Shown here piece after piece: positions 2,947 to 62,820 of a stretch of 64,000 nt of DNA. Source of the DNA: Candidatus Omnitrophota bacterium (GTDB lineage: Bacteria; Omnitrophota; Gorgyraeia; Zapsychrales; Fredricksoniimonadaceae); the NCBI GenBank assembly GCA_903901225.1, contig CAIUQE010000035.1:9249-73248 (forward strand). Direction: 5' to 3'. The position numbers and the translations under genes are program-made. A model generated the notes under the pieces. That model was not told the DNA's origin and ran no database searches. It saw nothing but the letters and a program-made list of their open reading frames with translations. Numbering within the stretch: position 1 is the stretch's first letter; the number at the start of each line of letters is the position of its first letter.

Positions 2947-5900
2947 TTGAAGAATTGTACGCGAGTGTTGCGTAAATTTATTGCCACCGTATTGATCCTG
3001 GCCTTCACGCTGATGGATCTGCGCGCCTATGCCCAGGGGGTGATCCCCTTGCCGCCGCCAGGCACGCGCCTGGCCCTCAGCCCTATTGTTGCCCCACCGC
3101 TGCTCAAGGGCATCAAGGTGTTCCGTGACGATCCTTTCCGTTTTGATTTTATCCTCGATAAAGGTGACGCGCCGTCCACGGATACGCAGGTTAAAACAGA
3201 TTCAACCCGCCTGATCAAATACTTCCTCGCCGCGCTCACAGTCCCTGAAAAAGACCTCTGGGTCAACCTTTCGCCCTACGAAAAAGACCGCATTGTGCCC
3301 GAAGCCTTTGGCCAGACCGAGATGGGGCGTGATCTTCTGGCCCAGGATTACATTCTTAAACAGATAACGGCATCAGTTCTCTATCCGGATGAGAAAACTG
3401 GCAAGGAATTCTGGGCTAAGGTCTACGCCGAAGCGCAGCAACGTTACGGCACAACCGACATCCCGGTGGACACCTTCAACAAAGTCTGGATCGTCCCGGA
3501 GAAAGCCACCGTCTATGAACACCAGGACGCCGCCTTTGTGGTCGAGAGCGGATTGAAAGTCATGTTGGAAAGTGATTACGTAGCCATGTCCCGGGCGGAC
3601 ATGAAGTCCGCCCCTACAACACAGGGTGTTGCTCTCATGAGCGTAGGGGAGGACCTTGTGTCCTCCCGTAACGAGATCGCAAAAAATGTTTTACGCGAAG
3701 TCATCATCCCCATCCTCGAAAAAGAAGTCAACGAAGGCAAGAATTTCGCCACGCTCCGCCAGGTTTACAACTCCCTCATCCTGGCCACCTGGTACAAGCG
3801 CAAGATCAAAGCCAGCATCATGGGCCGGGCGTACGTCGACCAAAAGAAAACCGCCGGCGTTGACATTGTTGACAAGAACGAGAAGGAAAAGATCTGGGCC
3901 CAATACGTCGAAGCCTTCAAGAAAGGCGCGTACAACTTCATCAAGGAAGAATATGACCCGTCCACGCAAACCACGATCCCCAGGAAGTATTTTTCCGGTG
4001 GGATGGATTGCTCGATGGAGGTGTTCAAGGTAAATGTAACAGATGCGGCTATGCCGGTTGAGGCAATTACCCCAGGACGTGACGTTGTTATCGGTGTAAC
4101 AGGGGCGCTGGAAAAGCCTGCCTTTGAAGAAAATTACAATTTGAAGACATCCGATCAGGACCACGCCATGTTCTCATCGGCGTTAAACATCAAATACAGG
4201 CCTGAGGTCGAACGAATTTATGATATTTACAGCCAGTTCATAAAGGATGGCGGAGGTTATGTATTGCCGTTTTCAAAAGAAAAAGCAGTGAAAAGATTAG
4301 ATTTTCGTTCAGCGGCGAAATCGTATTTTATTGCCGGATGTTATCTTGGTGTTGCCCTTGCTGTAGGTGGTATTCAGTATAGCCTGATACCGGATTCATT
4401 TTTTTTCCAAACAATTGGCAGTTCCATAAAAGTTCTTTCATTAGCGATGTTTTTTTATAAATCTTATACTTCTTTCCTGTACGGCGGGCTTCAGCCACTA
4501 ACTCATAAAGTTATCATGACACGGGCAACAGGTAAACTTGATGCTTTTCATGCGTATGGTATTTCTCATGAGATGGCCCATGTTCTGGAAATGCCAAAAA
4601 ATATTATATATGCTAATGCGTATGGTTTCTTAATGAGCAAGAAACTTGGCTATGAACATTCCAGCTATGATGAGAACATGGCTTTAATTTATGATTTGGA
4701 TATGTTTTCGTCTAAGAATCTGAATGACCATATCTGTCGTGGGCCGGGGTATGCGGTCGCCAATATTATTTTAAAAGAATTTCCCGGCACCTTGTCGGAT
4801 CAGGAGAGGTTGCTTAGAAAATTTCTTCAAGCAGTAGAAAGAAACGAATTTATGCTGGATGAAAGCATAAAAGATGCTTTGAAAAAGACACGATCAAGCC
4901 TGGAAGAGAAAGATTACTTTATAGTTGCTCCCAAACGTGAAAAAAGTTGGATATATCGATATGGGAACGGGATCGCTCAGCTGGCGTTACGGCATTACAA
5001 CAATGACGTTGACGCCGCGTTGCGATATATTTATCGGCTTAGTCGGCAACGGGATTCAAGGTTGGCAGATAAGCCCGTTGATAATGCTATGGAAGAAAAA
5101 AATGACGGCGGGATCAAAGATTTCAATGAAAAATCATTACTTGCCCCCCACCGCCTGACGATCGCCGAAGCCAGGGAGCGCTTGATCGACAGTTTAAAGG
5201 TCATCAAGGCGCATTATCCTGCTTTTCAAAAAGCTTGTTCCGATGGGCTTGAGGTTTTCAAGAACGAAGGAGTTAAGGCATTTGAAAGCAGATCTTATCC
5301 GGTGATCAAGGCAGAGGCCGATGCCCTTCGGGTCCACGTTGACGCGGTGAAGGCATTGCCCGCGTTATTGGGCTTTTCAGAGCCGGAAATGAAAGCCAAA
5401 CTGGATCCGTTCCTGCGGCAGATCGCTGAAGAAGCAAAAGTGGATAAGGTCCTTATTTCGTTCAGGACTGGTTTTTATTATGATTTTTCTTATACGAGCG
5501 GCTTTACGGATGAAGAAATTATGAATTTCAGATTACAGAACGATGAAATTTTCGATGTGATCTCTAATTCCGGAATTCAAATGAGTCCTGAGAAAATAGC
5601 CAAGGGGATGAACGCGTTAAGATCCGCGGGTATGGTTTCAGCACTCGACGTATCAACAGACGCAAAATGGTTGATCAAGATAGAGGATTCTTACATTTCA
5701 ATCGTTATCGGGCGCTCAGCGCAAGGGGTTTCATTGAATGGAGAGCTTACGGATAATGACAGGAAGGCTTTGGCCACGAAGTTGAACGCATTTGTAAGGA
5801 ATGGCCAAGCTCCGTGGTATGGGGTGAGGAAGTTTCTTGACGACAATCAATATAAAACATTTGACGATTTTATGTATTTCTTAAGGCACAACAGCGGGAT

Positions 5901-6819
5901 TGGTCCTTTAAAGGAACACATACTCCCGATCATTTATAATAATATTCCGGAATTGCTGAAAGGATCTCCCGCGCAAGACGGAAGGATTCAGCAGCGGGAT
6001 GATCACATTATTGGAAACATGGTAGAAGTATTAAAACAAACACAACTCCTTGGTAATGTGGAAACATTTTTGCAGTTATTGGAAAAGGGGGCTGAATTTA
6101 AATCTTGGGATATTTCAGGAGAAGTTCATCAGAGAGTCGCGTCATTTAAAGGGATGGCGGAAGACAAGAAGCTCAAGCTTGATATTTCCGGTCTCACAAA
6201 TGAAGCGCTGATCGTCCCTGCGTGCGACCTGAACTGGCTGGATGTGGTGGTGGATAATCTCCTTCAGAATGCCATTAAATATACATCGGCCGGCGCGGTG
6301 AAGGTTCGTCTTTCTAAAAAGATGATGCACGCGGAAGATCCTGATTTAGAACAAGCATTTGCTGTTCTGGAAGTCGAAGATACGGGCATAGGTGTTCCTG
6401 CAGATGAAAGGGTTGCAGTATTGGAGAGAGGATACCGGGCAACGAACGCGATCGCCGCTAAGATCAAAGGCACGGGCATAGGGTTGGATGCTGTTTCTAC
6501 TATTCTGCGCTTGATGCAAGGCGATATTACGGTTGAACCCGGTGAGAATGGAATAGGTTCAAAATTCATCGTCCGCTTGCCGCTTGTTCAAGATCCAAGC
6601 CAGGATCAAGCTGAGGTACCTTTACCCGGCGGCATCGACCTTAACCCGGCGCAACTTGATCTTAAAACGCAGAATTCCGGCGGCGAGATCGCTTTCAATC
6701 TTGACCCCACGTTGCTCGCCCGCCTGCAGAATGCTTCCGGCATTTCACCCGTGATCGTCAGTGTGCGGCCGCTGGACAGCATTTCTGCATTCATGGGGAT
6801 CCAGAAGCCTGTGAAATGA
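2947..6819 (+). CDS. giant (1290 aa) secreted/membrane protein, paralogue A: conserved N-terminal ~330 aa domain, two TM helices, C-terminal GHKL/HATPase_c ATPase domain, conserved ~60 aa C-terminal tail
   Basis: TTG start with an AAAGGA SD 6 nt upstream. Signal peptide ending AYAQG. Residues ~35-365 are ~65% identical to the 17180 protein. N-box LLQNAIKYT, G1 VEDTGIGV and G2 GTGIGLD motifs are present near the C-terminus, but no recognisable H-box. The last ~60 aa (GGIDLN..DL....G..F.DP...) are shared with the paralogue. Confidence 0.75.
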   Translation: MKNCTRVLRKFIATVLILAFTLMDLRAYAQGVIPLPPPGTRLALSPIVAPPLLKGIKVFRDDPFRFDFILDKGDAPSTDTQVKTDSTRLIKYFLAALTVPEKDLWVNLSPYEKDRIVPEAFGQTEMGRDLLAQDYILKQITASVLYPDEKTGKEFWAKVYAEAQQRYGTTDIPVDTFNKVWIVPEKATVYEHQDAAFVVESGLKVMLESDYVAMSRADMKSAPTTQGVALMSVGEDLVSSRNEIAKNVLREVIIPILEKEVNEGKNFATLRQVYNSLILATWYKRKIKASIMGRAYVDQKKTAGVDIVDKNEKEKIWAQYVEAFKKGAYNFIKEEYDPSTQTTIPRKYFSGGMDCSMEVFKVNVTDAAMPVEAITPGRDVVIGVTGALEKPAFEENYNLKTSDQDHAMFSSALNIKYRPEVERIYDIYSQFIKDGGGYVLPFSKEKAVKRLDFRSAAKSYFIAGCYLGVALAVGGIQYSLIPDSFFFQTIGSSIKVLSLAMFFYKSYTSFLYGGLQPLTHKVIMTRATGKLDAFHAYGISHEMAHVLEMPKNIIYANAYGFLMSKKLGYEHSSYDENMALIYDLDMFSSKNLNDHICRGPGYAVANIILKEFPGTLSDQERLLRKFLQAVERNEFMLDESIKDALKKTRSSLEEKDYFIVAPKREKSWIYRYGNGIAQLALRHYNNDVDAALRYIYRLSRQRDSRLADKPVDNAMEEKNDGGIKDFNEKSLLAPHRLTIAEARERLIDSLKVIKAHYPAFQKACSDGLEVFKNEGVKAFESRSYPVIKAEADALRVHVDAVKALPALLGFSEPEMKAKLDPFLRQIAEEAKVDKVLISFRTGFYYDFSYTSGFTDEEIMNFRLQNDEIFDVISNSGIQMSPEKIAKGMNALRSAGMVSALDVSTDAKWLIKIEDSYISIVIGRSAQGVSLNGELTDNDRKALATKLNAFVRNGQAPWYGVRKFLDDNQYKTFDDFMYFLRHNSGIGPLKEHILPIIYNNIPELLKGSPAQDGRIQQRDDHIIGNMVEVLKQTQLLGNVETFLQLLEKGAEFKSWDISGEVHQRVASFKGMAEDKKLKLDISGLTNEALIVPACDLNWLDVVVDNLLQNAIKYTSAGAVKVRLSKKMMHAEDPDLEQAFAVLEVEDTGIGVPADERVAVLERGYRATNAIAAKIKGTGIGLDAVSTILRLMQGDITVEPGENGIGSKFIVRLPLVQDPSQDQAEVPLPGGIDLNPAQLDLKTQNSGGEIAFNLDPTLLARLQNASGISPVIVSVRPLDSISAFMGIQKPVK
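3593..3667. repeat. REPIN-like hairpin doublet, copy A, in frame inside CDS (GGGCGGAC-atgaa-GTCCGCCC ...32 nt... GGGAGGAC-cttgt-GTCCTCCC)
   Basis: Two 21-nt hairpins (8-bp GC stem, 5-nt loop) 32 nt apart. Additional CCCCTAC/GTAGGGG pairing bridges the spacer. Homologous to the copies at 17832 and 10929. Confidence 0.8.
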
Positions 6820-17050: not shown

Positions 17051-17179
17051 AACTCACAACTGGATTTTTTTGTGCCACAAACTTGCATTTTGCTACATTA
17101 TGTGCTATTTTTCTGCTTAAACCACCTATTGACAGATCGACTTTGTTCATAAACCCTTAAATTTTTGAGGATTAATGCC

Positions 17180-20100
17180 ATGAAGAAGACCTTTTATTTT
17201 CGATTTATTTCTGCCTGGATCCTTGTCAGTTTCCTGACAACCGGGGTGGTCCCGTCGGGCGCATACGCGCAGGCGTTGAACCTTCCGGCACCGGGGACCA
17301 TGGTATCCCTGACACCGGCCTATATGCCGATCCTCATGAAGGGTGTCCGGGTGCATCCCGAGAACCCTCTTTTGTTTGACTTTATCCTCGATAGCGGGAA
17401 ATCCGCCCTCAAGGCTGAAAGCCCTGAATTCAAGGCTGAATCCCAAAAACTCATCAAGTATTTCCTGGCGTCATTGACGATCAAGGAAGAAGACCTGTGG
17501 GTCAACTTGTCGCCTTACGAAAAAGACCGGATGATCACCGATGAGCTGGGCAAGACCGAACTGGGGCGTGACATGCTGGCGCAGGATTATATCCTCAAGC
17601 AGTTGACCGCTTCCCTTATATACCCCGAGAAGGATCTCGGCAAAGCATTCTGGGACAGGGTTTACTCCAAGGCGCGGGAACAATTTGGTAACACAGATAT
17701 CCCGGTCGACACCTTCAACAAAGTCTGGATCACAGCCGACAAGGCCAAGGTCCTCGAACGTAACAACGTAGCCTACGTCGTCGGCGCGCATCTGAAGGTG
17801 ATGCTGGATGTGGATTATACCGCTGCTATGCGGGCCGACACAAGGTCGGCCCCTACAACCAATAATGTTAGTGCGAAGGGCGTAGGGGAGGACCTTGTGT
17901 CCTCCCGCGATGAGATCGCCCGACAGGTCATCCGCGACGTCGTCATCCCCGAGATCGAAAAAGAAGTCAACGAAGGCCAAAACTTCGCCATGTTGCGCCA
18001 GATGTTCTATTCCATGATCCTCGCCTCCTGGTACAAGCTCGCGCTCAAGGATGCGCTGCTGAATCAGGTATATAGCAATCAAGCCAAGACCAGCGGGGTC
18101 CTGTCCGACGATCCGGCGGTCAAGGACAAGATCTATACGCAGTATCTGGAAGCCTACAAGAAGGGCGTGTTCAATTATATCAAGGAAGACATGGACGCTG
18201 TGAGTCAGCAGCCTGTGCCGCGGAAGTATTTTTCGGGTGGGCTCAATTTATTTCCCAAGGGATCTGAAACTGTTGAGTATGCGCAAGCGGCAACGCAGGA
18301 GCAGATAGCGAATATTACGTTTTCAAAATTATGGTCTATTTCCGTTCTGGTTACCCGAGAGCGGACGCCACCTTCTAAGGCAACAGAGACGGAGCCGACG
18401 ATCCTTTATGATCTGTGGGGAAGCATGGAAGTTACACCTGCAGTAGATCTCTATAAATTGGAAAGTTGGTGGATAGAAGGGGGAGAATATTGGAAGGCTT
18501 TCGTGAATCTCAAGAAAGCCCTCGATACAGATGCCAAATATACTCGTTTTGATGACATGGGCAAGGCGGAAAATTATATATCTGGAAAAAAATTTAAAGA
18601 AGCTGAAAAGATATTAAGGCAGGTCATATCAGCCAATCCGGAGTATTCATTGGCCTATGCCTATTTAGGGTTGGCCTTATGCGCGCAAGGCAATACTGAA
18701 GAGGCATACAAGAATAATATGAAAGCCGCGGAGCTGGATGCCATTAACAAGATCGAAATAAGAAAATTTCCGCAAAGGCCATTGTCGCGTGCGGCGAGAC
18801 TTGAAAGATATATGCAAATTTTCAGAAAATTTTTTCCTCAAAGAATGACGTATGAAGCTTTTGTGGATCGTGTTTGGGATGGCAGGATCAAGGAAAACCC
18901 CAGGATCAAGGTCCAAACTTATTCGGCGAATAAAGACAAAAAAAGTATTTATGTGGGGAAGTTGAATAAAATTGGCCCATACTTGGAGCTCTTTATTCAA
19001 CCTGAGGAAGGGGATGGGGTAAAAATAGATTCCTACAAAATTAAAAGGATCACTGTTTATCCCGATTTAGCTCAGGTGAAAGAGGCGTCTGACGCGGCGG
19101 AAAAGAGCTTATCTGTTGAAGAAATGATCTCATTGGGACAATTGCATGAACGCCAAGGTGATTTGGAAAGTGCGGAAAAATATTTTCGTGATGCTGTGAA
19201 AAAGAACGGCAATGATGCCAGGGCCCACGCGGTCCTTGGCGTGTTTTTGAGATCTGTGAATCGTCTGGATGAGGCCGTGCAAGAGTTGGAGATAGCTCAA
19301 AACTTGGATCATCAGTATTATCCTGAGTATTTTACCGTCGACGGAATCCAAAAGCTGATAGATGGATATGTAGTTGATGCCATTGAGGATTTTGAAGAGG
19401 CAGTGAAATCAGATGAAGAGATGGCATTGGCTTATGCGTGGTGGGGGATCGCCTTGAATGCCGCAGCAGATAAAAAAGCCAAAAGAGAGGGGGGGCAAGT
19501 CTCGGGATCTCAAAGAAGCGAGGCACTTGGTTATATAAAACACGCGTTGATATTGGATCCAGAAAACAAGGAGATCAAAAGACTTCTTGCCCTTCTTAAG
19601 CCATCCTTTTTATCAAAGGTGAGGTTCGCCAGGGATTTCACCGGGGAAACAATGAGCGCTGAACAGTTTAAAAAAGCGATTCTGACGGGGAAGATCCAGC
19701 CGGGGACCAGGATCAAGATCAAACGGGTCTTTGAAGAAGGGGTTTCCACGGGGATCACGGATAATGTCGTTTTTGGATATGTCGAGACAACGCCCCATAG
19801 CAGTACGCCTGACATTGTTTACAATCTCCCGTTATTTACAGGTGATGGAAAAATAGTGAGTCTTGATAAAATTGTTGAGGTTACTGTTTACGACGCGTCA
19901 ATGGAAACTATCACGGCGCCCGAAGGCCTGGAGAACTCAAATCAAACATTGACCATCAAGTCCGACGCGGCGGAAAAAATATCAGGGTCAATGCGTCAAA
20001 CGGATGCTGAAATTATGGCAGGCCTGGAAGAAATAATGGCTCTTCCTGATGCATCGAAAGAAGCCATGGAGCAAGTTTTGTCAGATTTTGCGCAGGGAAT

Positions 20101-21202
20101 TCCTCCCACAACGAATATATCTGATGTGCCGACAGATCAGGAATTGGAGGATTTGGTTTTCAAGGTTTCGGAATTTGCGACAAGTAACAGTGAATTTATT
20201 CAAGCGTTGCAAAGAGTAACGCCTGAGCAGATCGAGGAATTTGTCAGGATGGATTTGCGTTTTGACGAAGATAAGAAACCGGCACTCATTCAATTGATGC
20301 TGAAGATCAGGGAGCTCTCCAGTGATCACGTTCTTGCGGCTGGAAGGATGTTGGGGGAAAACCCAGAAGTATCAGCAAATTTTATTAAAACCGTTAATCA
20401 ATTGGTTTATATCTTTGAACAGGGAAAGCTTGGCGGGTTGGTCAAAGTGGACAAGGAAAGGCAAAGAAGGATACATCTGATAAAAGGCGCATTTGAATAT
20501 GTCCTGTTTTTTGCGATGGCTTTGGTTGGAGAGATGGGGGCAGAACAGCTTTCTGAAGTTCGTGGGAATTTGTCGAGGTTTTTTATGGTGGCGATAAGTA
20601 TAGCTTGGTTGATCAATAAATCGGGGATGGACATTTCAAATCCATTAGGAACAAAGTCACCTGCGTTGATCAAGCCGGTTTATTTCAATTCTATGTTGAA
20701 GGCGGATATGGTAAAGATGGCCGAGGATTTTTTGAAGGATAATAGATCGGTCAGGGCGGCCTCCGAAAATATCGCGTTATTGAAACTCAAGAAGCGGTTG
20801 ATGCTTTGGCTGAAGAACACCATGTTCATTGATAAAGATTCACGTAACACGGCCTTTAAGGGGATATCAACGTATATCCGTGTTGTTGAGGTGCAGAAGG
20901 GCTTGTACAAAGTAGAGCTTGATCCCGATGCCAAGATGGATGGCGCGCAAAAGGGCATGGACCAGGCGGAAAATGTTAAAGAACCTGAGCAGCATAGAGA
21001 TAATGCCGGAGTTACAAACGGCGGTATCGACCTCAACGCCAAAAAGATGGACCTGGACGTGGCCAGGGATGGCAAGGGTGTTGAGATGACATTTGACCCG
21101 GCCATGGTCGCGGAGTTCCGCAAGGGTAATTTTACGGGAGTTGAAGGGATCATCCTCAAGATCGTCCCGATCGAGAACCCCCAGGCGCTCCTGGGGCTGT
21201 AG
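17180..21202 (+). CDS. giant (1340 aa) secreted protein, paralogue B: conserved N-terminal domain, TPR repeats, conserved ~60 aa C-terminal tail; no ATPase domain
   Basis: GAGGA SD 8 nt upstream of the ATG at 17180. Signal peptide ending AYAQA. The N-terminal ~330 aa and C-terminal ~60 aa are homologous to the 2947 protein. The middle contains TPR-like repeats and is AT-rich. Confidence 0.75.
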   Translation: MKKTFYFRFISAWILVSFLTTGVVPSGAYAQALNLPAPGTMVSLTPAYMPILMKGVRVHPENPLLFDFILDSGKSALKAESPEFKAESQKLIKYFLASLTIKEEDLWVNLSPYEKDRMITDELGKTELGRDMLAQDYILKQLTASLIYPEKDLGKAFWDRVYSKAREQFGNTDIPVDTFNKVWITADKAKVLERNNVAYVVGAHLKVMLDVDYTAAMRADTRSAPTTNNVSAKGVGEDLVSSRDEIARQVIRDVVIPEIEKEVNEGQNFAMLRQMFYSMILASWYKLALKDALLNQVYSNQAKTSGVLSDDPAVKDKIYTQYLEAYKKGVFNYIKEDMDAVSQQPVPRKYFSGGLNLFPKGSETVEYAQAATQEQIANITFSKLWSISVLVTRERTPPSKATETEPTILYDLWGSMEVTPAVDLYKLESWWIEGGEYWKAFVNLKKALDTDAKYTRFDDMGKAENYISGKKFKEAEKILRQVISANPEYSLAYAYLGLALCAQGNTEEAYKNNMKAAELDAINKIEIRKFPQRPLSRAARLERYMQIFRKFFPQRMTYEAFVDRVWDGRIKENPRIKVQTYSANKDKKSIYVGKLNKIGPYLELFIQPEEGDGVKIDSYKIKRITVYPDLAQVKEASDAAEKSLSVEEMISLGQLHERQGDLESAEKYFRDAVKKNGNDARAHAVLGVFLRSVNRLDEAVQELEIAQNLDHQYYPEYFTVDGIQKLIDGYVVDAIEDFEEAVKSDEEMALAYAWWGIALNAAADKKAKREGGQVSGSQRSEALGYIKHALILDPENKEIKRLLALLKPSFLSKVRFARDFTGETMSAEQFKKAILTGKIQPGTRIKIKRVFEEGVSTGITDNVVFGYVETTPHSSTPDIVYNLPLFTGDGKIVSLDKIVEVTVYDASMETITAPEGLENSNQTLTIKSDAAEKISGSMRQTDAEIMAGLEEIMALPDASKEAMEQVLSDFAQGIPPTTNISDVPTDQELEDLVFKVSEFATSNSEFIQALQRVTPEQIEEFVRMDLRFDEDKKPALIQLMLKIRELSSDHVLAAGRMLGENPEVSANFIKTVNQLVYIFEQGKLGGLVKVDKERQRRIHLIKGAFEYVLFFAMALVGEMGAEQLSEVRGNLSRFFMVAISIAWLINKSGMDISNPLGTKSPALIKPVYFNSMLKADMVKMAEDFLKDNRSVRAASENIALLKLKKRLMLWLKNTMFIDKDSRNTAFKGISTYIRVVEVQKGLYKVELDPDAKMDGAQKGMDQAENVKEPEQHRDNAGVTNGGIDLNAKKMDLDVARDGKGVEMTFDPAMVAEFRKGNFTGVEGIILKIVPIENPQALLGL
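17832..17906. repeat. REPIN-like hairpin doublet, copy B, in frame inside CDS (GGGCCGAC-acaag-GTCGGCCC ...33 nt... GGGAGGAC-cttgt-GTCCTCCC)
   Basis: Same position in the protein alignment as copy A. It encodes RADTRSAPTT...VGEDLVSSR. Confidence 0.8.
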
Positions 21203-21219
21203 ACGGGAGTGAACCTGGG

Positions 21220-21921
21220 TTAACCCGCGGGTGGTCCTGAAAGGGCCTGCAACATGACAATGGTGTCTTCAATAAGCTGTTTTCTGGCCCATTGTTTTTG
21301 ATCTTCGTCCAGGGCGGTGCCCAATCCCTGCAAGATGTTCCTGGGCGTAAAAGTCTTCCTGATGAACTTGATCGTCATCTGGATCAATTCATCCGTCCCC
21401 TTGCCTGTCCGTTCACGGATCAGGTCAGAATCAGCGCGGAATCCTGACTTGAGGAAATACCAGATATCATACAGATCCCGGGCGACAGGTGTTTTACGGT
21501 CAGTCAAAGCCACCAGTTTATTCGTCAGAAGGGTGGTTTCCTCGGGGATAGTGAGGGAAACGCCCAGGAACAGGACAGGTTTGAATTTGTTAGCCGTCCA
21601 AAGCCTTTTGTTAAGCTCGATCTTGATGTTGGGATAACCCGCGCCGTAGTCAAGGACACCCAAAAGTGTAAAGTGTTTGTCTTGCCAGTCGAGGATGCGG
21701 CCCTCCCGGGCCAGGATGGAGCGTAAGCGCGCGACGTCATCATCGGAGAAAGGCTTGAGCATATCGAAATCCAGGTCAAAAGAGAAGCGGGGAAGGCCGT
21801 AGAAGAAGAGCGCGCACGTGCCGCCTTTAAAGGCGATCTTCCCGGGAAATGCTTTGGTAATGGACGTCAGCAAGCTTGTCAAATATCGGCGATGAAGCGC
21901 CTGGTCAAACTTGCGTTCCAT
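21220..21921 (-). CDS. AbiEii/AbiGii-family nucleotidyltransferase toxin (type IV TA / abortive infection)
   Basis: FKGGTCALFFYGLPRFSFDLDFDM nucleotidyltransferase motif. Convergent with giant gene B, with 17 bp between stops. Confidence 0.75.
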   Translation of the reverse strand: MERKFDQALHRRYLTSLLTSITKAFPGKIAFKGGTCALFFYGLPRFSFDLDFDMLKPFSDDDVARLRSILAREGRILDWQDKHFTLLGVLDYGAGYPNIKIELNKRLWTANKFKPVLFLGVSLTIPEETTLLTNKLVALTDRKTPVARDLYDIWYFLKSGFRADSDLIRERTGKGTDELIQMTIKFIRKTFTPRNILQGLGTALDEDQKQWARKQLIEDTIVMLQALSGPPAG

Positions 21922-22516
21922 AAAACTTACGCGCTTTCTTTTGCACGGTTAAAGGGAAAATACCACATAATTGTTTCAGATAGCTCCGGTCAAGGCGATC
22001 CGGAGTATCAATGTCAGGCATAAAACCGAAATACAATGAATCCAGGATGGCCCGTTCGGGGCAGGCGATAGAAACATTGTTTTTTGTGATGATCCCTTCC
22101 TGATGAAAAAACAATTCTTTCTTTATGGAGTAGTAGGCGTACGTGATGCTTTGGATCTTGCGCCGATAAGAGAGAAGGGCTACGGAATCAATGCTTTTGC
22201 GCTGCTGAAAATTGATCCCCGCGCTTGCCAAAGCGCTGTTAAAAGACACATACGAAGGCGTGATCACTAAATTAGCCAGCGCACGCGTGTCATAATTCTC
22301 GTCAATGGCATAATAGCCCTTGGCCAGCCTGAGGATCAGCTTCCGTTCCACCATGCGGGCGGCGCTGATCTTGGCGGTCAGCGCGCTGTCCTTCCAGAGT
22401 ACACGAAGATCCTGCGGACGGAAAACCGTTCGCCCGGAACTCATCAAAATTTTCAATCGCGTTGATGCATTCATATGCGATAGAAGTATACAACATTGTA
22501 TCCTTGGATGCAACAT
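21905..22516 (-). CDS. AbiEi-family antitoxin/transcriptional regulator (start may be the internal Met at 22474)
   Basis: N-terminal AbiEi-type winged helix (GRTVFRPQDL...RKLILRLAKGYYAI). Overlaps the toxin gene by 17 nt. Confidence 0.65.
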   Translation of the reverse strand: MLHPRIQCCILLSHMNASTRLKILMSSGRTVFRPQDLRVLWKDSALTAKISAARMVERKLILRLAKGYYAIDENYDTRALANLVITPSYVSFNSALASAGINFQQRKSIDSVALLSYRRKIQSITYAYYSIKKELFFHQEGIITKNNVSIACPERAILDSLYFGFMPDIDTPDRLDRSYLKQLCGIFPLTVQKKARKFYGTQV

Positions 22517-57420: not shown

Positions 57421-58016
57421 AAGTTGTTTTTGTTGATAGAGATGGCGTGATCAATGAATTTCCCGGCAACGGCCTTTATGTCACCAACGTCAAGGATTTT
57501 CATTTCATCCCGCGTTCCATGGAAGCGCTGAAATTGTTGACCGACGCCGGGTACCATATTTTCGTGATATCGAACCAGGCGGGTGTCGGCAAAGGGGTAT
57601 TCACCCACGACAAGCTCCGGCGCATCACGCAGCGCCTGCACGATGGCGCGGCCCGGGCCGGAGCGCGTATCACCGGGGTCCATTACTGCACCTGCAAGTC
57701 GACGGACGGGTGCAATTGCCGCAAGCCGCGCGTCGGCAATATCCTCAAGGCGCTTGCCTCCGTCGGGGGGAGTGACGCGGACGCGCGCGACGCGTATTTT
57801 GTGGGGGATACCGAGATCGACATCAAGGCCGGGAAGAATGCCGGATGCAAGACGGTCTTTGTCCTGTGCGGGCGTGAAGACCGGGCGTACATGAAGCGCT
57901 GGGATATCAGGCCCGACCATATAGCAAAGGACCTTTATGAAGCCGCAAAACTCATCATCGCCCGGGATACTGATCATCCACGCGACCGCGGGCGCCGGGC
58001 ATCGCAAGGCCGCTGA
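57417..58016 (+). CDS. gmhB: D-glycero-D-manno-heptose 1,7-bisphosphate phosphatase-like HAD-IIIA phosphatase
   Basis: VFVDRDGVIN motif I, ISNQ, and the Zn motif H..C.C.DGCNCRKP. The 3' end overlaps the next gene by ~80 nt. Confidence 0.65.
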   Translation: MKVVFVDRDGVINEFPGNGLYVTNVKDFHFIPRSMEALKLLTDAGYHIFVISNQAGVGKGVFTHDKLRRITQRLHDGAARAGARITGVHYCTCKSTDGCNCRKPRVGNILKALASVGGSDADARDAYFVGDTEIDIKAGKNAGCKTVFVLCGREDRAYMKRWDIRPDHIAKDLYEAAKLIIARDTDHPRDRGRRASQGR

Positions 58017-59046
58017 AGCCATCCATCACGGGCTGGAGGACCGTTATCCGGGAGCGTCGACGGTCGTTGACGCGCTGGACCTTACCACGCCGTTCTTTCG
58101 CCATGCCTATACCCAGGGTTACGAATTCATGGTCGGGAAGATCCCGGTGTTCTGGGGAATGTTCTTTTGGCTCACCGACCAGGCCTGGTTCCTGCCGGTC
58201 TTCCGCGCCATCCGTCGCGTCTATAACGGGCTTAACGCCACGCGCCTCGTGGCTTTCCTGAAGAAAGAAAAGTTCGACTGCGTCGTGGCGACGCATTTCT
58301 TTGCCGCGGAGGTGTGCGGCCATCTGCGCCGCACGGGGCAGCTCGGCGGAAAGCTGGTCGTTGTTGTGACGGATTTCGACGTGCATAAAATATGGCTTGT
58401 CCCGGGCGTCGATGAATACTGCGTGGCGAGCGAGTACACCAAAAGGCGCCTGGTGTCGCTTGGAGTGGATGAGAGTAAAATATTCATTACCGGCATCCCG
58501 CTGGATGAGAAATTCACCCGGCCGCGCGACAAGGCCGGGATGCGCCGCAAGCTCGGCCTTGACTCGGAGGCGTTCACGGTCCTTATCTCAACAAGTTCAT
58601 TCGGTTTCGGGCCTATCGAGGAATTGGCCGGATACCTGGCCACGTTGCAGCTCATTATCATTTGCGGGAACAACAAGGAACTCCAGGCGCGGATCGCGGC
58701 GCGGTCCAATCCGCGGCACAAGCCTTTCGGGTTCGTCAATAACATGGAAGAGATGATGGCTGCCGCCGACGTCATGGTCACGAAGCCCGGCGGCCTTTCG
58801 GTCACGGAAGCGCTGGCCAATAACCTTCCCCTTGTTTTCTTCAGCGCGATCCCGGGTCAGGAAGCCGGGAATATCCATGTCCTGGCGATCAATGGCATCG
58901 GCCTGAGCGGCATGCCGTTGCGCGACCTTTGTTCCGAGGTCCTCGGCCTGGCCGCGTCCCCGGCGGCCCTGGCGCAGGCGCGGGAGAGGACCCGCATCCT
59001 GGCCAGGCCTGATTCCGTCCGGGATATCATTGCCCGTCTGGTATGA
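57937..59046 (+). CDS. GT28-family glycosyltransferase (MGDG-synthase/UgtP/MurG-like)
   Basis: N-terminal ILIIHATAGAGHRKAAEAI and a C-terminal GT28 domain. Confidence 0.7.
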   Translation: MKPQNSSSPGILIIHATAGAGHRKAAEAIHHGLEDRYPGASTVVDALDLTTPFFRHAYTQGYEFMVGKIPVFWGMFFWLTDQAWFLPVFRAIRRVYNGLNATRLVAFLKKEKFDCVVATHFFAAEVCGHLRRTGQLGGKLVVVVTDFDVHKIWLVPGVDEYCVASEYTKRRLVSLGVDESKIFITGIPLDEKFTRPRDKAGMRRKLGLDSEAFTVLISTSSFGFGPIEELAGYLATLQLIIICGNNKELQARIAARSNPRHKPFGFVNNMEEMMAAADVMVTKPGGLSVTEALANNLPLVFFSAIPGQEAGNIHVLAINGIGLSGMPLRDLCSEVLGLAASPAALAQARERTRILARPDSVRDIIARLV

Positions 59047-60704
59047 CACGGCCTTTGATCGCCCAGGTCGTGGTCGGGGTCCCCGTGGAAGGCCCTTTCG
59101 ATTATCTCATTCCTGATGAACTTTCCGCCAAAGTCGCGGCAGGGCAGCGCGTCCTTGTCCGTTTCGCCGGCCGCAAGCGCGTGGGTGTCATAGTGCGGCT
59201 TCTGGCGAACACGGAACATACGGGGAAATTGAGCGTCCTGATGAATGTCCTGGACGCGGCCCCTGTGTTTTCACCGGAGTTCATCCGGCTGGCCGATGTT
59301 TTCGCGCGGCGGTTCGCCTGCACCACGGGTGAGGCGTTTGAACTTTTCCTGCCTGCGTACCTGAGAGAAGCGAAGATCGCCGCGGTAACACCGCATGGCC
59401 CGCGCGCGCCTCAAGGCCCTTTCTCCGTCGACATGATATTTGATCGCGGGCAAACGAAGCGCTGGGATATCCTGTTACCGCGCATTACCGCAACCTTGCG
59501 CGAAGGGTACGGGGTCCTTGTCCTCGTCCCCGATTCCGCCAGGCTTGCGGATGTCCTTGCGAAGCTGGGCCCTCTGGCCAAAGCCGAAGAGCGCGTGTTC
59601 CTGGCGCAGGACACTCCCAAAAAGGAATATGACCGCTGGCTCAAGGCCCGCAACGGCCAGGCCCGGCTGGTCGTGGGTTTTGTGTCGGCGGTATTTGCCC
59701 CCGTGCAGCGCCTGGGGCTTGTTGTCGTGATCGACGAGGAGAGCGCGGCTTACAAGAACGACCAGTCGCCTTTTTATCACGCGCGAGACGTCGCGTTCGC
59801 GCGCGCGGCCATCGAAGGATGCGCGCTTGTCTGCGTTTCCAGCGCCCCGTCGGCTGAAATGTGGCACAAGGCCGGCGCGGGGGAGGCGTCCCTGACCCGC
59901 CTTGATGAGGCGCTGGCGCCCGTCAAGCTTTTGGACCTGACGAATTTCAAGATGAAAAAAGGGACATATGTTTCCCCGGGATTGCGGCAGCTGATCGAAA
60001 CGACGCTGAAGAACGGGCACAAGGCCCTCTGTTATATCCAGGCCGCGCGCGGCGTCGCGGGGGTTGTTGCCGAGATAAAAAAGATATTTTCCTCGGCCCG
60101 GGTCGAAGGGTATGACAAGGCGTCGGCCGCGCTTGGCACCGATGCCGATATCCTCGTCGTGACACAAGCGGTGTTCCGGCATCGCGCCTCCTTCAAGGCC
60201 GCTCTCACGGTGGTGCTCGATATTGACTGGGAATTTCACAAACATCATTATCAGGCGGCCCAGGGCGCGTTCGCCCTGGTTCAGTATTTACGCCAGATGA
60301 CCCAGGAGCAGGTGGTCCTGCAGACCCGTAACGCGGCCGATCCTTTGTTGCAGGCCCTCGCGGCGCCGGACCCGGCGGCGTTCTATGATCGCGAGCTGGC
60401 CCAGCGGCGTGCCATGGAACTGCCGCCGTTCGCGACGCATGTCACGATCATCCTGCGCTCAGCCGACTTTGAGCTGGCTTGCGGGGAAGCCAAAAGGTTG
60501 TATGATATCCTTGATCCTTTACGCTCCGGGGATGTGATGGTCCTTGAGCCGCAGGAAGACCGCGCGGCGATCGTGCGCGGTAAGTTTCGTTTTTGCGTGA
60601 CGCTGCAGGGGCCCGACAGGGACGTGGTTGTCGGGATCGTCAAGGGCGCGTTGAAGGCCTTCAGGCCGAGGAAAGGCACGGTGGTTACCGTGAACGTGGA
60701 TTAA
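59043..60704 (+). CDS. PriA-like protein lacking helicase catalytic motifs (degenerate primosomal protein N')
   Basis: N-terminal 3'BD (VPVEGPFDYLIPD) and C-terminal domain (VVLQT...RRAMELPPFATHV) align to PriA. Walker A is absent, DEEH reads DEES, there is no Cys4 zinc finger and no motif VI arginines. Confidence 0.65.
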   Translation: MTRPLIAQVVVGVPVEGPFDYLIPDELSAKVAAGQRVLVRFAGRKRVGVIVRLLANTEHTGKLSVLMNVLDAAPVFSPEFIRLADVFARRFACTTGEAFELFLPAYLREAKIAAVTPHGPRAPQGPFSVDMIFDRGQTKRWDILLPRITATLREGYGVLVLVPDSARLADVLAKLGPLAKAEERVFLAQDTPKKEYDRWLKARNGQARLVVGFVSAVFAPVQRLGLVVVIDEESAAYKNDQSPFYHARDVAFARAAIEGCALVCVSSAPSAEMWHKAGAGEASLTRLDEALAPVKLLDLTNFKMKKGTYVSPGLRQLIETTLKNGHKALCYIQAARGVAGVVAEIKKIFSSARVEGYDKASAALGTDADILVVTQAVFRHRASFKAALTVVLDIDWEFHKHHYQAAQGAFALVQYLRQMTQEQVVLQTRNAADPLLQALAAPDPAAFYDRELAQRRAMELPPFATHVTIILRSADFELACGEAKRLYDILDPLRSGDVMVLEPQEDRAAIVRGKFRFCVTLQGPDRDVVVGIVKGALKAFRPRKGTVVTVNVD

Positions 60705-60706
60705 TC

Positions 60707-61636
60707 ATGCGGATCGTTTTTTTCGGCTGCGATGATTTCGCGGCGATCAACTTGTTGCATCTGATCGACCGTGGGCATCATATCGTCGGGCTCGTCACAC
60801 AGCCGGACAAGCCCAAGGGCCGCGGTTTGCGCGTCACGTATTCTCCCACCAAGCATATTGCCATGCTCAACGGGATCGCGCTGTTCCAGCCGGACTCCTT
60901 GAAGAATCCCGTTCTGGTGAGCCGTTTGGCCTGGTTCCACGCGGATATTTTCGTCGTTATCGCTTACGGGAAGATCCTTCCCGCGGAAGTCCTGGCTTTG
61001 CCGAAGCATTTTTGCGTCAACCTGCACGCGTCATTATTGCCCCGGCACAGGGGCGCGGCTCCGATCAACTGGGCTATCATCCACGGTGATACTGAAACGG
61101 GCGTGACGCTCATGAAGATGGATGAGGGCATGGACACGGGGGATATCATCGCCCAGGCCGCGTGCCCCATTGCCGACGATATGACGTCGGCTGAACTGCG
61201 CGCCAGGCTGGCCGATATGGGCGCGCGGCTTTTATCGGATTCACTGGAGCAGATAAAGTCCGGCGGCCACACGATCAAGCCACAGGATGCGGCGGGGGTC
61301 ACGCGCGCGCCCAAGATGCACAAGGACCTCGGGCATATCCGCTGGGACCGCACGGCGAAAGAGATCCATGACCTTGTCCGCGGGGTCCAGCCATGGCCCG
61401 GCGCTTTTACGTTCTGGGGCGCGACGCGGCTGAAGGTCCTGGAAGCCGAGGCGGCCGTGGCACAGGGAAAAGGCCGGCCGGGGGAGATCGTCGAGCTGCA
61501 CAAGGACGGTTTTTACGTCCAGGCCGCTGACAGCGCGGTGATCGTTAAGCGCGTGGTCCCGGCTGGTTCCCACGCCATGGACGCGCGGGCGTTCCTCGCC
61601 GGGCACAAGCTCAAGGTCGGGGATGTTTTAGGGTAG
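60707..61636 (+). CDS. fmt: methionyl-tRNA formyltransferase
   Basis: Formyltransferase motifs N..SLLP..RG..P and HGDTETG. 309 aa. Confidence 0.9.
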   Translation: MRIVFFGCDDFAAINLLHLIDRGHHIVGLVTQPDKPKGRGLRVTYSPTKHIAMLNGIALFQPDSLKNPVLVSRLAWFHADIFVVIAYGKILPAEVLALPKHFCVNLHASLLPRHRGAAPINWAIIHGDTETGVTLMKMDEGMDTGDIIAQAACPIADDMTSAELRARLADMGARLLSDSLEQIKSGGHTIKPQDAAGVTRAPKMHKDLGHIRWDRTAKEIHDLVRGVQPWPGAFTFWGATRLKVLEAEAAVAQGKGRPGEIVELHKDGFYVQAADSAVIVKRVVPAGSHAMDARAFLAGHKLKVGDVLG

Positions 61637-61662: not shown

Positions 61663-62820
61663 ATGGTTTCTGTAATATTGGTTATCGTCGGTTCTACGGT
61701 TGTCACATTGCTGGCTGTTATGGGTATTGCCTACAGTCTCAGCCGGGTCTCGGATCCTTCTTTAAAAGCGCTGCTGACAGGTTTTGGCGGCCGGCCGGCA
61801 TGGTTCAACAATGGCGCGATGGATGTCGATGGCCGCGCCGTGCGCGTGGTGTATACGCCGCGCGGCAGGAATATGCCCTCACGCCTGACGGTCGCCTTAA
61901 AGGGGGATTTCTTCGCGCACGCGATCTTTCGTTCGGAGACACAGGCAGACCGTATTTCCAAAGAAATAGGATTGAACCGGGAGATCCAGCTGTATGACCC
62001 GGCTTTCGACAGCGCGGTTTACGTCGAGTGCGAGGATGAGCCTTTTGTCCGGCAGTTGCTGGGGGCGCGTGAGGCCAAAGAACGCGTCGGCCGCATCCTC
62101 AGGGCCTTTACATCTTTAGAGATCGATGGCAAAGAATGCCGGATCATTAAATCCCCTTGTGATGATAATGCCGGATTGGGGCAGGATATATTGATGGAGG
62201 CCGTGCGTGCCCTGGTTGCCTTGACCGCTGATATTTCGTTGCCTGCGCCGGGACAGGCGTCAGCAACGCCTCTGACCGATGAAAGCCGGCGAACAACGGG
62301 ATTCTTTGTTGCTTTTGCCGGAGTTGTCCTGGTTACCGGTATTTTCCTGTGGATATGGGGTCTGGTCGCGTTCCCACCGGTATTGCCGGGAAAGGCGTTC
62401 ATGTCATCGCTCGTGATCAGCGGGACCCTGGGGTTTCCTTTCTTGTTGTATATTTATACTCAGCTCAAGGGGCTGTCCACGGCGTCGCGGTATTTTTTGT
62501 TGACGGCTATTTTAGGCGGCGCGGGTATCCTGTTTTTGTGCTGGGGCGGGTTGATGGTCCTCAACGGCAGTCAGGATGTTTCGCCTCTCGCCGTGCACCA
62601 CGTGGGGGTGACGGAAAAAAATATCACGCATTCCAAAAATTCGACAACGTATCATGTCACGGTTCTGTCCTGGGAACGCGGCTTCGCGACGTATTCGTTC
62701 AGCGTGCCGCAGTCCATGTATGCCAGGATCGAGCCCGGTGATACCTGCGCGATCGGGACCCGGGGAGGGTTGTTCGCCCTGGAATGGGTGGCGTCGAAAG
62801 AATGCCAGCCGTCGCGCTAA
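61663..62820 (+). CDS. hypothetical polytopic membrane protein
   Basis: N-terminal TM helix, ~180 aa soluble region, then 4-5 C-terminal TM helices. Confidence 0.5.
   Translation: MVSVILVIVGSTVVTLLAVMGIAYSLSRVSDPSLKALLTGFGGRPAWFNNGAMDVDGRAVRVVYTPRGRNMPSRLTVALKGDFFAHAIFRSETQADRISKEIGLNREIQLYDPAFDSAVYVECEDEPFVRQLLGAREAKERVGRILRAFTSLEIDGKECRIIKSPCDDNAGLGQDILMEAVRALVALTADISLPAPGQASATPLTDESRRTTGFFVAFAGVVLVTGIFLWIWGLVAFPPVLPGKAFMSSLVISGTLGFPFLLYIYTQLKGLSTASRYFLLTAILGGAGILFLCWGGLMVLNGSQDVSPLAVHHVGVTEKNITHSKNSTTYHVTVLSWERGFATYSFSVPQSMYARIEPGDTCAIGTRGGLFALEWVASKECQPSR

Follow-up and report, generated by a model that had tools for sequence, protein, structure and literature searches.

Background

What becomes of a replication restart protein when the motifs that make it a helicase are gone? 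This question is raised by one gene in a 64,000 nucleotide stretch of DNA from a Candidatus Omnitrophota bacterium (assembly GCA_903901225.1, contig CAIUQE010000035.1, positions 9,249 to 73,248), which is called the window here. The gene is referred to as ψpriA. An earlier note on this DNA, made from its letters only, had described the product as a PriA homologue stripped of all its catalytic and zinc-binding motifs, and had noted that it lies next to fmt, with def missing.

59043..60704, + strand: ψpriA, a PriA orthologue of 553 amino acids, predicted to be helicase-dead and without a Cys-rich region (open reading frame list, Pfam/NCBIfam, phmmer against the PDB, AlphaFold2, Foldseek)

The answer favoured here, with a probability of roughly 0.7, is that ψpriA is a vertically inherited priA orthologue that has turned into a pseudohelicase. 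Its product would be an ATP-independent platform at replication forks, on which DnaB is reloaded. Confidence is high that the gene is a functional but helicase-dead orthologue, and moderate for the step that involves DnaB.

Homology and fold

The reading frame is complete, with 553 codons and no interruption. Both ends of its product match PriA domain families, as the earlier note had supposed.

59064..59354, + strand: 3'-DNA-binding domain (3'BD), residues 8-104 (PF17764, PriA_3primeBD, E 8e-22)
60426..60701, + strand: PriA C-terminal domain (CTD), residues 462-553 (PF18074, PriA_C, E 4e-6; 28.1 bits, slightly over the cutoff of 26.9; aligned to the E. coli CTD)

The alignment to the priA model TIGR00595 that the earlier note proposed yields 178.2 bits, which is under the equivalog cutoff of 230.35. 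The product is also far under all the cutoffs of the PRK05580 and PRK14873 models.

A phmmer search of the PDB aligns the product to the PriA of Klebsiella pneumoniae and E. coli in three blocks (residues 6-117, 140-314 and 366-539); the winged helix and the Cys-rich region fall outside them. The product has no winged-helix domain and no linker to it (approximately residues 110-215 in E. coli), and the domain is absent from intact relatives as well. The E. coli PriA sequence used as the reference throughout was taken from NC_000913, and was aligned with the window protein and its relatives.

An AlphaFold2 model built on a 93-sequence alignment has a pLDDT of 95.6, a pTM of 0.93 and no disordered segments. 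When this model is compared with the PDB by Foldseek, the nine top matches are all PriA, with TMq values of 0.71-0.86 (8fak_H, 6dcr, 6dgd, 4nl4 and 4nl8 among them). The best is 8fak_H, an E. coli PriA (E 4e-41, TMq 0.86); the runner-up family is Mfd, with TMq below 0.45. This confidence, together with the PriA matches, argues that the 3'BD, both RecA-like lobes and the CTD persist as a compact unit in the PriA arrangement. The expectation that the RecA folds would survive without a P-loop is thus borne out in the model.

Motifs lost and retained

The motif states of the product were read from alignments to E. coli PriA, and conservation was scored over the 93 homologues.

59439..59474, + strand: former Walker A or motif I, residues 133-144, FDRGQTKRWDIL (alignments, motif census)
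59733..59744, + strand: relic of Walker B or motif II, D231-E232-E233-S234, DEES for DEEH (alignment, conservation)
59751..59786, + strand: aromatic/basic loop, Y237-KNDQSPFYHA-R248 (aligned with E. coli YKQQEGWRYHAR)
60030..60050, + strand: deletion scar C330-Y-I-Q-A-A-R336, formerly motif IV and a 63-residue 4xCxxC zinc module (alignment)
60279..60302, + strand: former motif VI, V413-QYLRQM-T420, without the arginine finger (alignments)

The Walker A segment has not been deleted, as had first been thought, but substituted at unchanged length. E. coli GVTGSGKTEVYL aligns to F133-DRGQTKRWDIL-144, which is equally long and lacks the glycine-rich loop. The string that the earlier note quoted at this point, ILLPRITATLREG, is the helix that follows the P-loop. 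A motif scan found no G.GK[TS] and no DExH anywhere in the product, so no intact copy of either lies elsewhere in the protein; the scan of the window gave no hidden copy either.

Motif II does read DEES, as had been noted: its Asp and Glu are kept, and its His is lost. The claim that all catalytic motifs were stripped therefore holds for GxGKT, DExH and motif VI, and goes too far if it is extended to every catalytic residue.

The zinc-binding insertion is indeed gone. Where E. coli has LNRRGF followed by the 4xCxxC module (63 columns), the product has just the three residues I-Q-A and no cysteine. PF18319, the model for the Cys-rich region with its 4xCxxC and two zinc ions, has no match in the product.

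In motif VI, QVAGRAGR has become Q414-Y-L, a gap of five residues, and R417-Q (VQYL-----RQMT). The arginine finger had correctly been called lost, by what turns out to be a deletion, while the string once offered as its replacement, QGAFALVQ, sits just upstream of the true position. Elsewhere, E. coli GSATP reads SSAPS.

Surfaces that touch DNA in E. coli fared differently from these motifs. The 3'-end pocket is present as F19-D20-Y21, which corresponds to E. coli F16-D17-Y18, and D20 and Y21 are invariant or nearly so. In the aromatic/basic loop, Y237, Q241, P243, Y245 and R248 are near-invariant.

One further detail concerns the former P-loop. At window positions 59457-59465 the product reads K139-R140-W141, so that Arg and Trp stand side by side where GK[T]-[E] used to be; the pair is conserved in dead PriAs of both the 550-residue and the 615-residue kind. 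W141 is invariant within the 46-member clade described below and at least 90% conserved in the 93 sequences. Position 139 is variable within the clade (K, Q, R or G). R140 and W141 may, with E232, form a structural plug or a salt bridge that stands in for the nucleotide.

Relatives and selection

Relatives were sought among 5.8 billion proteins, and were counted as clusters at 90% identity. This gave some 46 clusters of 546-599 amino acids, 48-81% identical, from NCBI, JGI, ENA and Logan assemblies. The named members all come from Candidatus Omnitrophota or Omnitrophica metagenome-assembled genomes (MAGs). All 46 lack GxGKT, DExH and GRxGR, and none has any cysteine in the columns of the Cys-rich region.

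The ratio of nonsynonymous to synonymous substitution (dN/dS) was computed by the Nei-Gojobori method for one pair, the window gene and its 81%-identical orthologue in L006 (GCA_017973895.1). It is 0.18 overall: 0.13 in the 3'BD, 0.20 in lobe 1, 0.13 in lobe 2 and 0.29 in the CTD. For the same pair, the flanking genes stand at 0.10 (fmt) and 0.11 (the glycosyltransferase). Across the clade there are 57 invariant positions, and the degree of conservation is much the same in the four regions. Purifying selection acts on each domain of ψpriA.

The annotation of these proteins varies. In NCBI MAGs, the clusters P0011, P0014, P0017, P0019, P0024, P0025, P0027, P0030, P0033, P0036, P0039 and P0133 carry the label 'hypothetical protein'. 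JGI calls many of the forms without a Cys-rich region 'primosomal protein N''.

The locus

59043..60704 lies between two genes on the same strand.

57937..59046, + strand: MGDG-synthase-like glycosyltransferase, upstream of ψpriA (Pfam PF06925, synteny)
60707..61636, + strand: fmt, methionyl-tRNA formyltransferase (TIGR00460, 273 bits; synteny)

The ATG of ψpriA overlaps the TGA of the glycosyltransferase gene by 4 nucleotides (ATGA), and the ATG of fmt comes 2 nucleotides past the TAA stop of ψpriA, with no def between the two. Given this spacing, the three genes look translationally coupled.

The order MGDG-synthase-like gene, ψpriA, fmt is found in the window and on seven contigs (L001, L002, L003, L004, L006, L086 and an ENA contig), often with galT-galT-gap downstream of fmt. 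In five other MAGs or contigs the locus holds an intact priA, and reads MGDG-synthase-like gene, uracil-DNA glycosylase (UDG) gene, priA, a TPR gene on the minus strand, def, fmt, galT, galT, gap, pgk. The named MAGs with this intact locus are likewise labelled Candidatus Omnitrophica or Omnitrophota.

Their five PriAs have 656-686 amino acids, with 11-14 cysteines in the whole protein. All five have GVTGSGKT or GVTASGKT together with QVAGRAGR or QMAGRAGR, and three of the five have an exact DEEH. Since dead and intact PriA share the slot between the MGDG-synthase gene and fmt, ψpriA is the positional orthologue of priA and occupies the ancestral priA slot.

Set against L085, L087, L088, L089 and L090, the window segment 57937-61636 and the other dead loci lack def, UDG and the minus-strand TPR gene. 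The UDG that went missing is a family-4/5-type uracil-DNA glycosylase (PF03167) whose gene lies directly upstream of intact priA. The locus has thus lost a DNA-repair gene as well as the catalytic motifs of PriA. In the sub-lineage of P0038, a DUF1016/YhcG nuclease-like gene stands between ψpriA and fmt (L001 11688-12767, L002 3680-4735); the ψpriA-fmt junction is therefore not strictly fixed.

It had been proposed that the order priA-def-fmt is kept here except for def. This is what the related intact-PriA MAGs indicate, where the order is priA-(TPR)-def-fmt. In the whole 64-kb window neither a motif scan nor tblastn found a def. Of the best 120 homologues in a search with Def, none falls below 60% identity to the Def of the intact lineage, and all five contexts that were examined belong to that lineage. 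An fmt without a def in the same genome would be very unusual. A move of def to another place in the genome is far likelier, and its true absence is improbable.

Motif scan and tblastn also found no second priA in the window, and there is none in the flanks, of up to 10 kb, of seven related loci. Presumably, then, this is the sole PriA of the genome. A contig search with the window protein returned three Omnitrophota loci (63%, 52% and 33% identity); the other matches were ordinary PriAs from other phyla.

Distribution and order of losses

An exhaustive HMMER search of 1.84 billion representative sequences gave 800 matches at E <= 1e-30, of which 245 full-length homologues were classified as follows.

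171 of 245: without motifs I and VI, Cys-rich region kept (7-9 cysteines in its columns), typically 600-630 amino acids
62 of 245: without motifs I and VI and without the Cys-rich region
12 of 245: intact

The window clade is one monophyletic group of 46 members, all without the Cys-rich region. It is not the only group of this kind. Fourteen other variants without the region were examined; each is nearer to the dead PriAs that keep the zinc module (39-48% identity) than to the window clade (30-39%), and the Cys-free linker, of 3-34 residues, differs from one variant to the next. Because each variant is nearer to module-keeping PriAs and has a linker of its own, the zinc module appears to have been lost repeatedly and independently, in several sub-lineages. 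A crude estimate by neighbour-joining and Fitch parsimony puts the number of losses at about nine.

The most economical history would start from a short intact PriA, which lost its ATPase motifs and after that, repeatedly, its zinc module. Helicase death is not a one-off oddity of the window but a state of the lineage, and it has a published precedent in Deinococcus.

The chances are about even for a broader claim: that much of Omnitrophota has no PriA other than an ATP-independent pseudohelicase, which has discarded its zinc module at least five times and perhaps about nine.

Some matches lie outside this pattern. P0119 and the cluster members P0259-P0261, of 800 amino acids and from Candidatus Latescibacterota, form another apparent lineage of PriA pseudohelicases. 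The winged helix and an 8-Cys zinc module are kept in this lineage, but SPGADRT stands in place of Walker A and EEEQ in place of DExH, and motif VI has gone. Partial degeneration is seen in P0225, P0226, P0228, P0241, P0246, P0248 and P0257. PriA pseudohelicases may be more widespread than Deinococcus and Omnitrophota.

Proposed mechanism

The ancestor would have been a short PriA, without a winged helix but otherwise intact, in the locus MGDG-synthase-UDG-priA-TPR-def-fmt. One large lineage then lost motif I (the P-loop) and motif VI (the arginine finger). This would abolish the binding and hydrolysis of ATP, and with it translocation and unwinding. The strand-separation β-hairpin of E. coli PriA, one wall of its pore for lagging-strand single-stranded DNA and its dock for PriB all belong to the Cys-rich region (PMC10175261). 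With unwinding already lost, the pin-bearing zinc module would have become expendable, so that it could be deleted in the window clade and independently in other sub-lineages.

What is left would be a rigid scaffold, made of the 3'BD, two dead RecA-like lobes with the aromatic/basic DNA-contact loop, and the CTD. The 3'BD of E. coli PriA grips the leading-strand 3' end with Asp17 and Tyr18, and the aromatic-rich loop of lobe 1 touches DNA at the fork junction (PMC5778457). With this pocket and loop conserved, the product probably still binds DNA, and could recognise abandoned forks and D-loops by the leading-strand 3' end and by the DNA-binding surfaces of the dead core. It would then act as a platform for reloading DnaB without ATP, either directly or via an adaptor; recruitment of DnaB is the presumed end point.

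The earlier note had proposed a helicase-dead scaffold that binds forks, and the motif losses, the dN/dS values, the modelled fold and the conserved D20 and Y21 are all consistent with that idea in these computational tests.

Weighing the alternatives

Several points weigh against the platform reading. The loss of ATPase activity is deduced purely from the letters of the protein, and the loss of helicase activity from the missing motifs. One catalytic element, the Asp-Glu pair, is left in motif II, where E232 is invariant in the 93 homologues. The dN/dS of ψpriA is somewhat above that of its neighbours, which indicates some relaxation. In addition, E. coli PriA requires the Cys-rich region for PriB-dependent loading of DnaB (PMC10175261). 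Because both that loading and the E. coli pore need the region, a PriA without it must engage DNA and its partners in a different way.

A final point is that ψpriA could be a neofunctionalised copy, with a normal priA elsewhere in the genome and the ψpriA product doing a job other than initiating restart, for instance competing or regulating at forks, or sensing DNA structure for another pathway. An intact second priA could have escaped notice, given that the places searched were the window and the sequence around related loci. ψpriA also evolves faster than its neighbours: next to the slightly higher dN/dS, it is 24-30% identical to intact relatives, compared to 38-43% for fmt. But the gene fills the exact ancestral priA slot, which points to orthology and not paralogy, and the places that were searched held no second PriA-like sequence. 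Bacteria normally carry one priA. This explanation survives best of the three considered, and is still unlikely.

The second alternative is that the protein is a non-canonical NTPase or translocase. A new site could be made of the Walker B Asp-Glu and K139, R140 and W141, or there could be a weak second nucleotide site. The retention of D231 and of the invariant E232 would fit such a site, as would the conservation of R140 and W141 at the T and E of GKTE, and E. coli PriA has a possible second nucleotide site (PMC5778457). Against this, the protein has no glycine-rich loop for binding phosphate, residue 139 is variable, motif VI is physically deleted and the Cys-rich unwinding pin is gone. Moreover, in E. 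coli the K230R change is by itself enough to abolish the ATPase of PriA (PMC5778457). The odds on this explanation are long.

The last alternative, a pseudogene, functionless relic or sequencing or assembly artefact, could call on the score under the TIGR00595 cutoff and the loss of key motifs, but is effectively refuted: the frame is uninterrupted and coupled to both neighbours, the AlphaFold2 model is confident, decay is ruled out by the conservation (57 invariant residues) and a dN/dS of 0.13-0.29 per domain, and the frameshift that the earlier note had considered is ruled out by the like architecture of some 46 clusters, down to 48% identity and from many independent assemblies.

Other features of the window

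The antisense reading frame opposite ψpriA (59475-60248, 257 codons) is without support, and is the usual shadow of a high-GC gene.

Directly 3' of fmt, 61663-62820 is an open reading frame of 385 amino acids that belongs to no significant Pfam or NCBIfam family; it has only a weak two-transmembrane (2-TM) match. L006 and the ENA contig, which are the closest relatives, have a family-less reading frame of equal length (385 amino acids) in the same slot. In L001 and L002 the one in that slot has 355.

The window contains two low-GC islands, 2947-6819 and 17165-22516, at 43-48% GC compared to 55-60% elsewhere. The first holds a protein of 1290 amino acids with a C-terminal HATPase_c as its sole domain. 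The second has a TPR protein of 1345 amino acids, followed by a minus-strand AbiEii-type toxin gene (21220-21921) and an unassigned partner reading frame (21905-22516). Both islands were possibly acquired horizontally. No magnetosome genes or other special context were seen in the window, which looks like ordinary chromosome.

Comparison with known systems

A PriA that is dead as a helicase is not new. In Deinococcus radiodurans PriA, motifs I and II are degenerate, and experiments in vitro found neither ATPase nor helicase activity (Lopper, Boone & Morrow 2015, PMC4504706). The protein binds single-stranded DNA and forks with near-normal affinity, and also binds DnaB; Deinococcus is without PriB and DnaT (PMC4504706). 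A 2018 review names Deinococcus as the sole exception (PMC5778457). A literature search returned no PriA pseudohelicases beyond that 2015 work, nothing on PriA in Omnitrophota, nothing on a PriA without a Cys-rich region, and nothing on def in Omnitrophota.

The Deinococcus protein is the closest known precedent. ψpriA resembles it in that both are PriA descendants without the residues for ATP hydrolysis, in a lineage at the level of a phylum, and the same model of an ATP-independent restart platform can be applied to both. The degree of loss differs. The P-loop of Deinococcus-Thermus can still be made out (GKT to GRT); that of ψpriA cannot. The Deinococcus paper describes the degeneration of motifs I and II and no loss of the Cys-rich region (PMC4504706); in ψpriA, motif VI is deleted and the zinc module and winged helix are absent. 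The loss in Omnitrophota is independent of that in Deinococcus, since related MAGs labelled Omnitrophica have an intact PriA in this very locus.

With the PriAs of E. coli and K. pneumoniae (TIGR00595; 4NL4, 6DGD, 8FAK) the product shares its modelled fold and the domain order 3'BD, lobe 1, lobe 2, CTD, at TMq 0.82-0.86. The residues of the 3'-end pocket are conserved too, as is the aromatic/basic loop. Compared to E. coli PriA it is without the winged helix, GxGKT, DEEH, the arginine finger, and the Cys-rich region that provides pin, pore wall and PriB dock.

Laboratory alleles of E. coli offer another comparison. The priA300 allele (K230R) has no ATPase, helicase or translocase activity, but PriA-PriB restart still works with it, in vivo as well as in vitro; the K230A and K230D alleles, which are ATPase- and helicase-dead, support this restart too (PMC5778457). 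With these alleles, platform function and catalysis prove separable, as is presumed for the ψpriA product. They are point mutants, however, with the Cys-rich region and the partners PriB and DnaT intact, and they fail in the PriA-PriC pathway. ψpriA by contrast is a natural and long-evolved form, with deletions.

The dead PriAs of about 615 amino acids from other Omnitrophota (such as P0052 and P0104) sit in the same locus, have lost motifs I and VI and have the conserved Arg-Trp pair. They keep the complete 4xCxxC zinc module that the window clade has deleted. Some NCBI and JGI annotations call them 'primosomal protein N''.

If the broader claim of a sole ATP-independent PriA in much of Omnitrophota is right, what PriA does universally would be to recognise forks by their structure and to recruit the helicase loader, and the 3'BD, dead RecA lobes and CTD alone would suffice for this. 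The role of the Cys-rich region outside PriB-containing bacteria would then be tied to unwinding, and a hand-off to DnaB that is independent of this region would be implied. As a naturally minimised PriA, the protein could show which surfaces serve fork recognition and helicase reloading without PriB or DnaT. There is also a practical side. Because these proteins score under the TIGR00595 cutoff and are mostly called 'hypothetical protein' in NCBI MAGs, pathway surveys would miss them, and would wrongly count Omnitrophota as lacking PriA.

Next to Deinococcus, the Omnitrophota radiation would thus be a second exception, and a larger and more radical one: more than 200 clusters at 50% identity are without P-loop and arginine finger, several sub-lineages also without the zinc module, with purifying selection throughout. 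Within it, ψpriA appears to be a more reduced and more extreme natural version of the PriA pseudohelicase known from Deinococcus.

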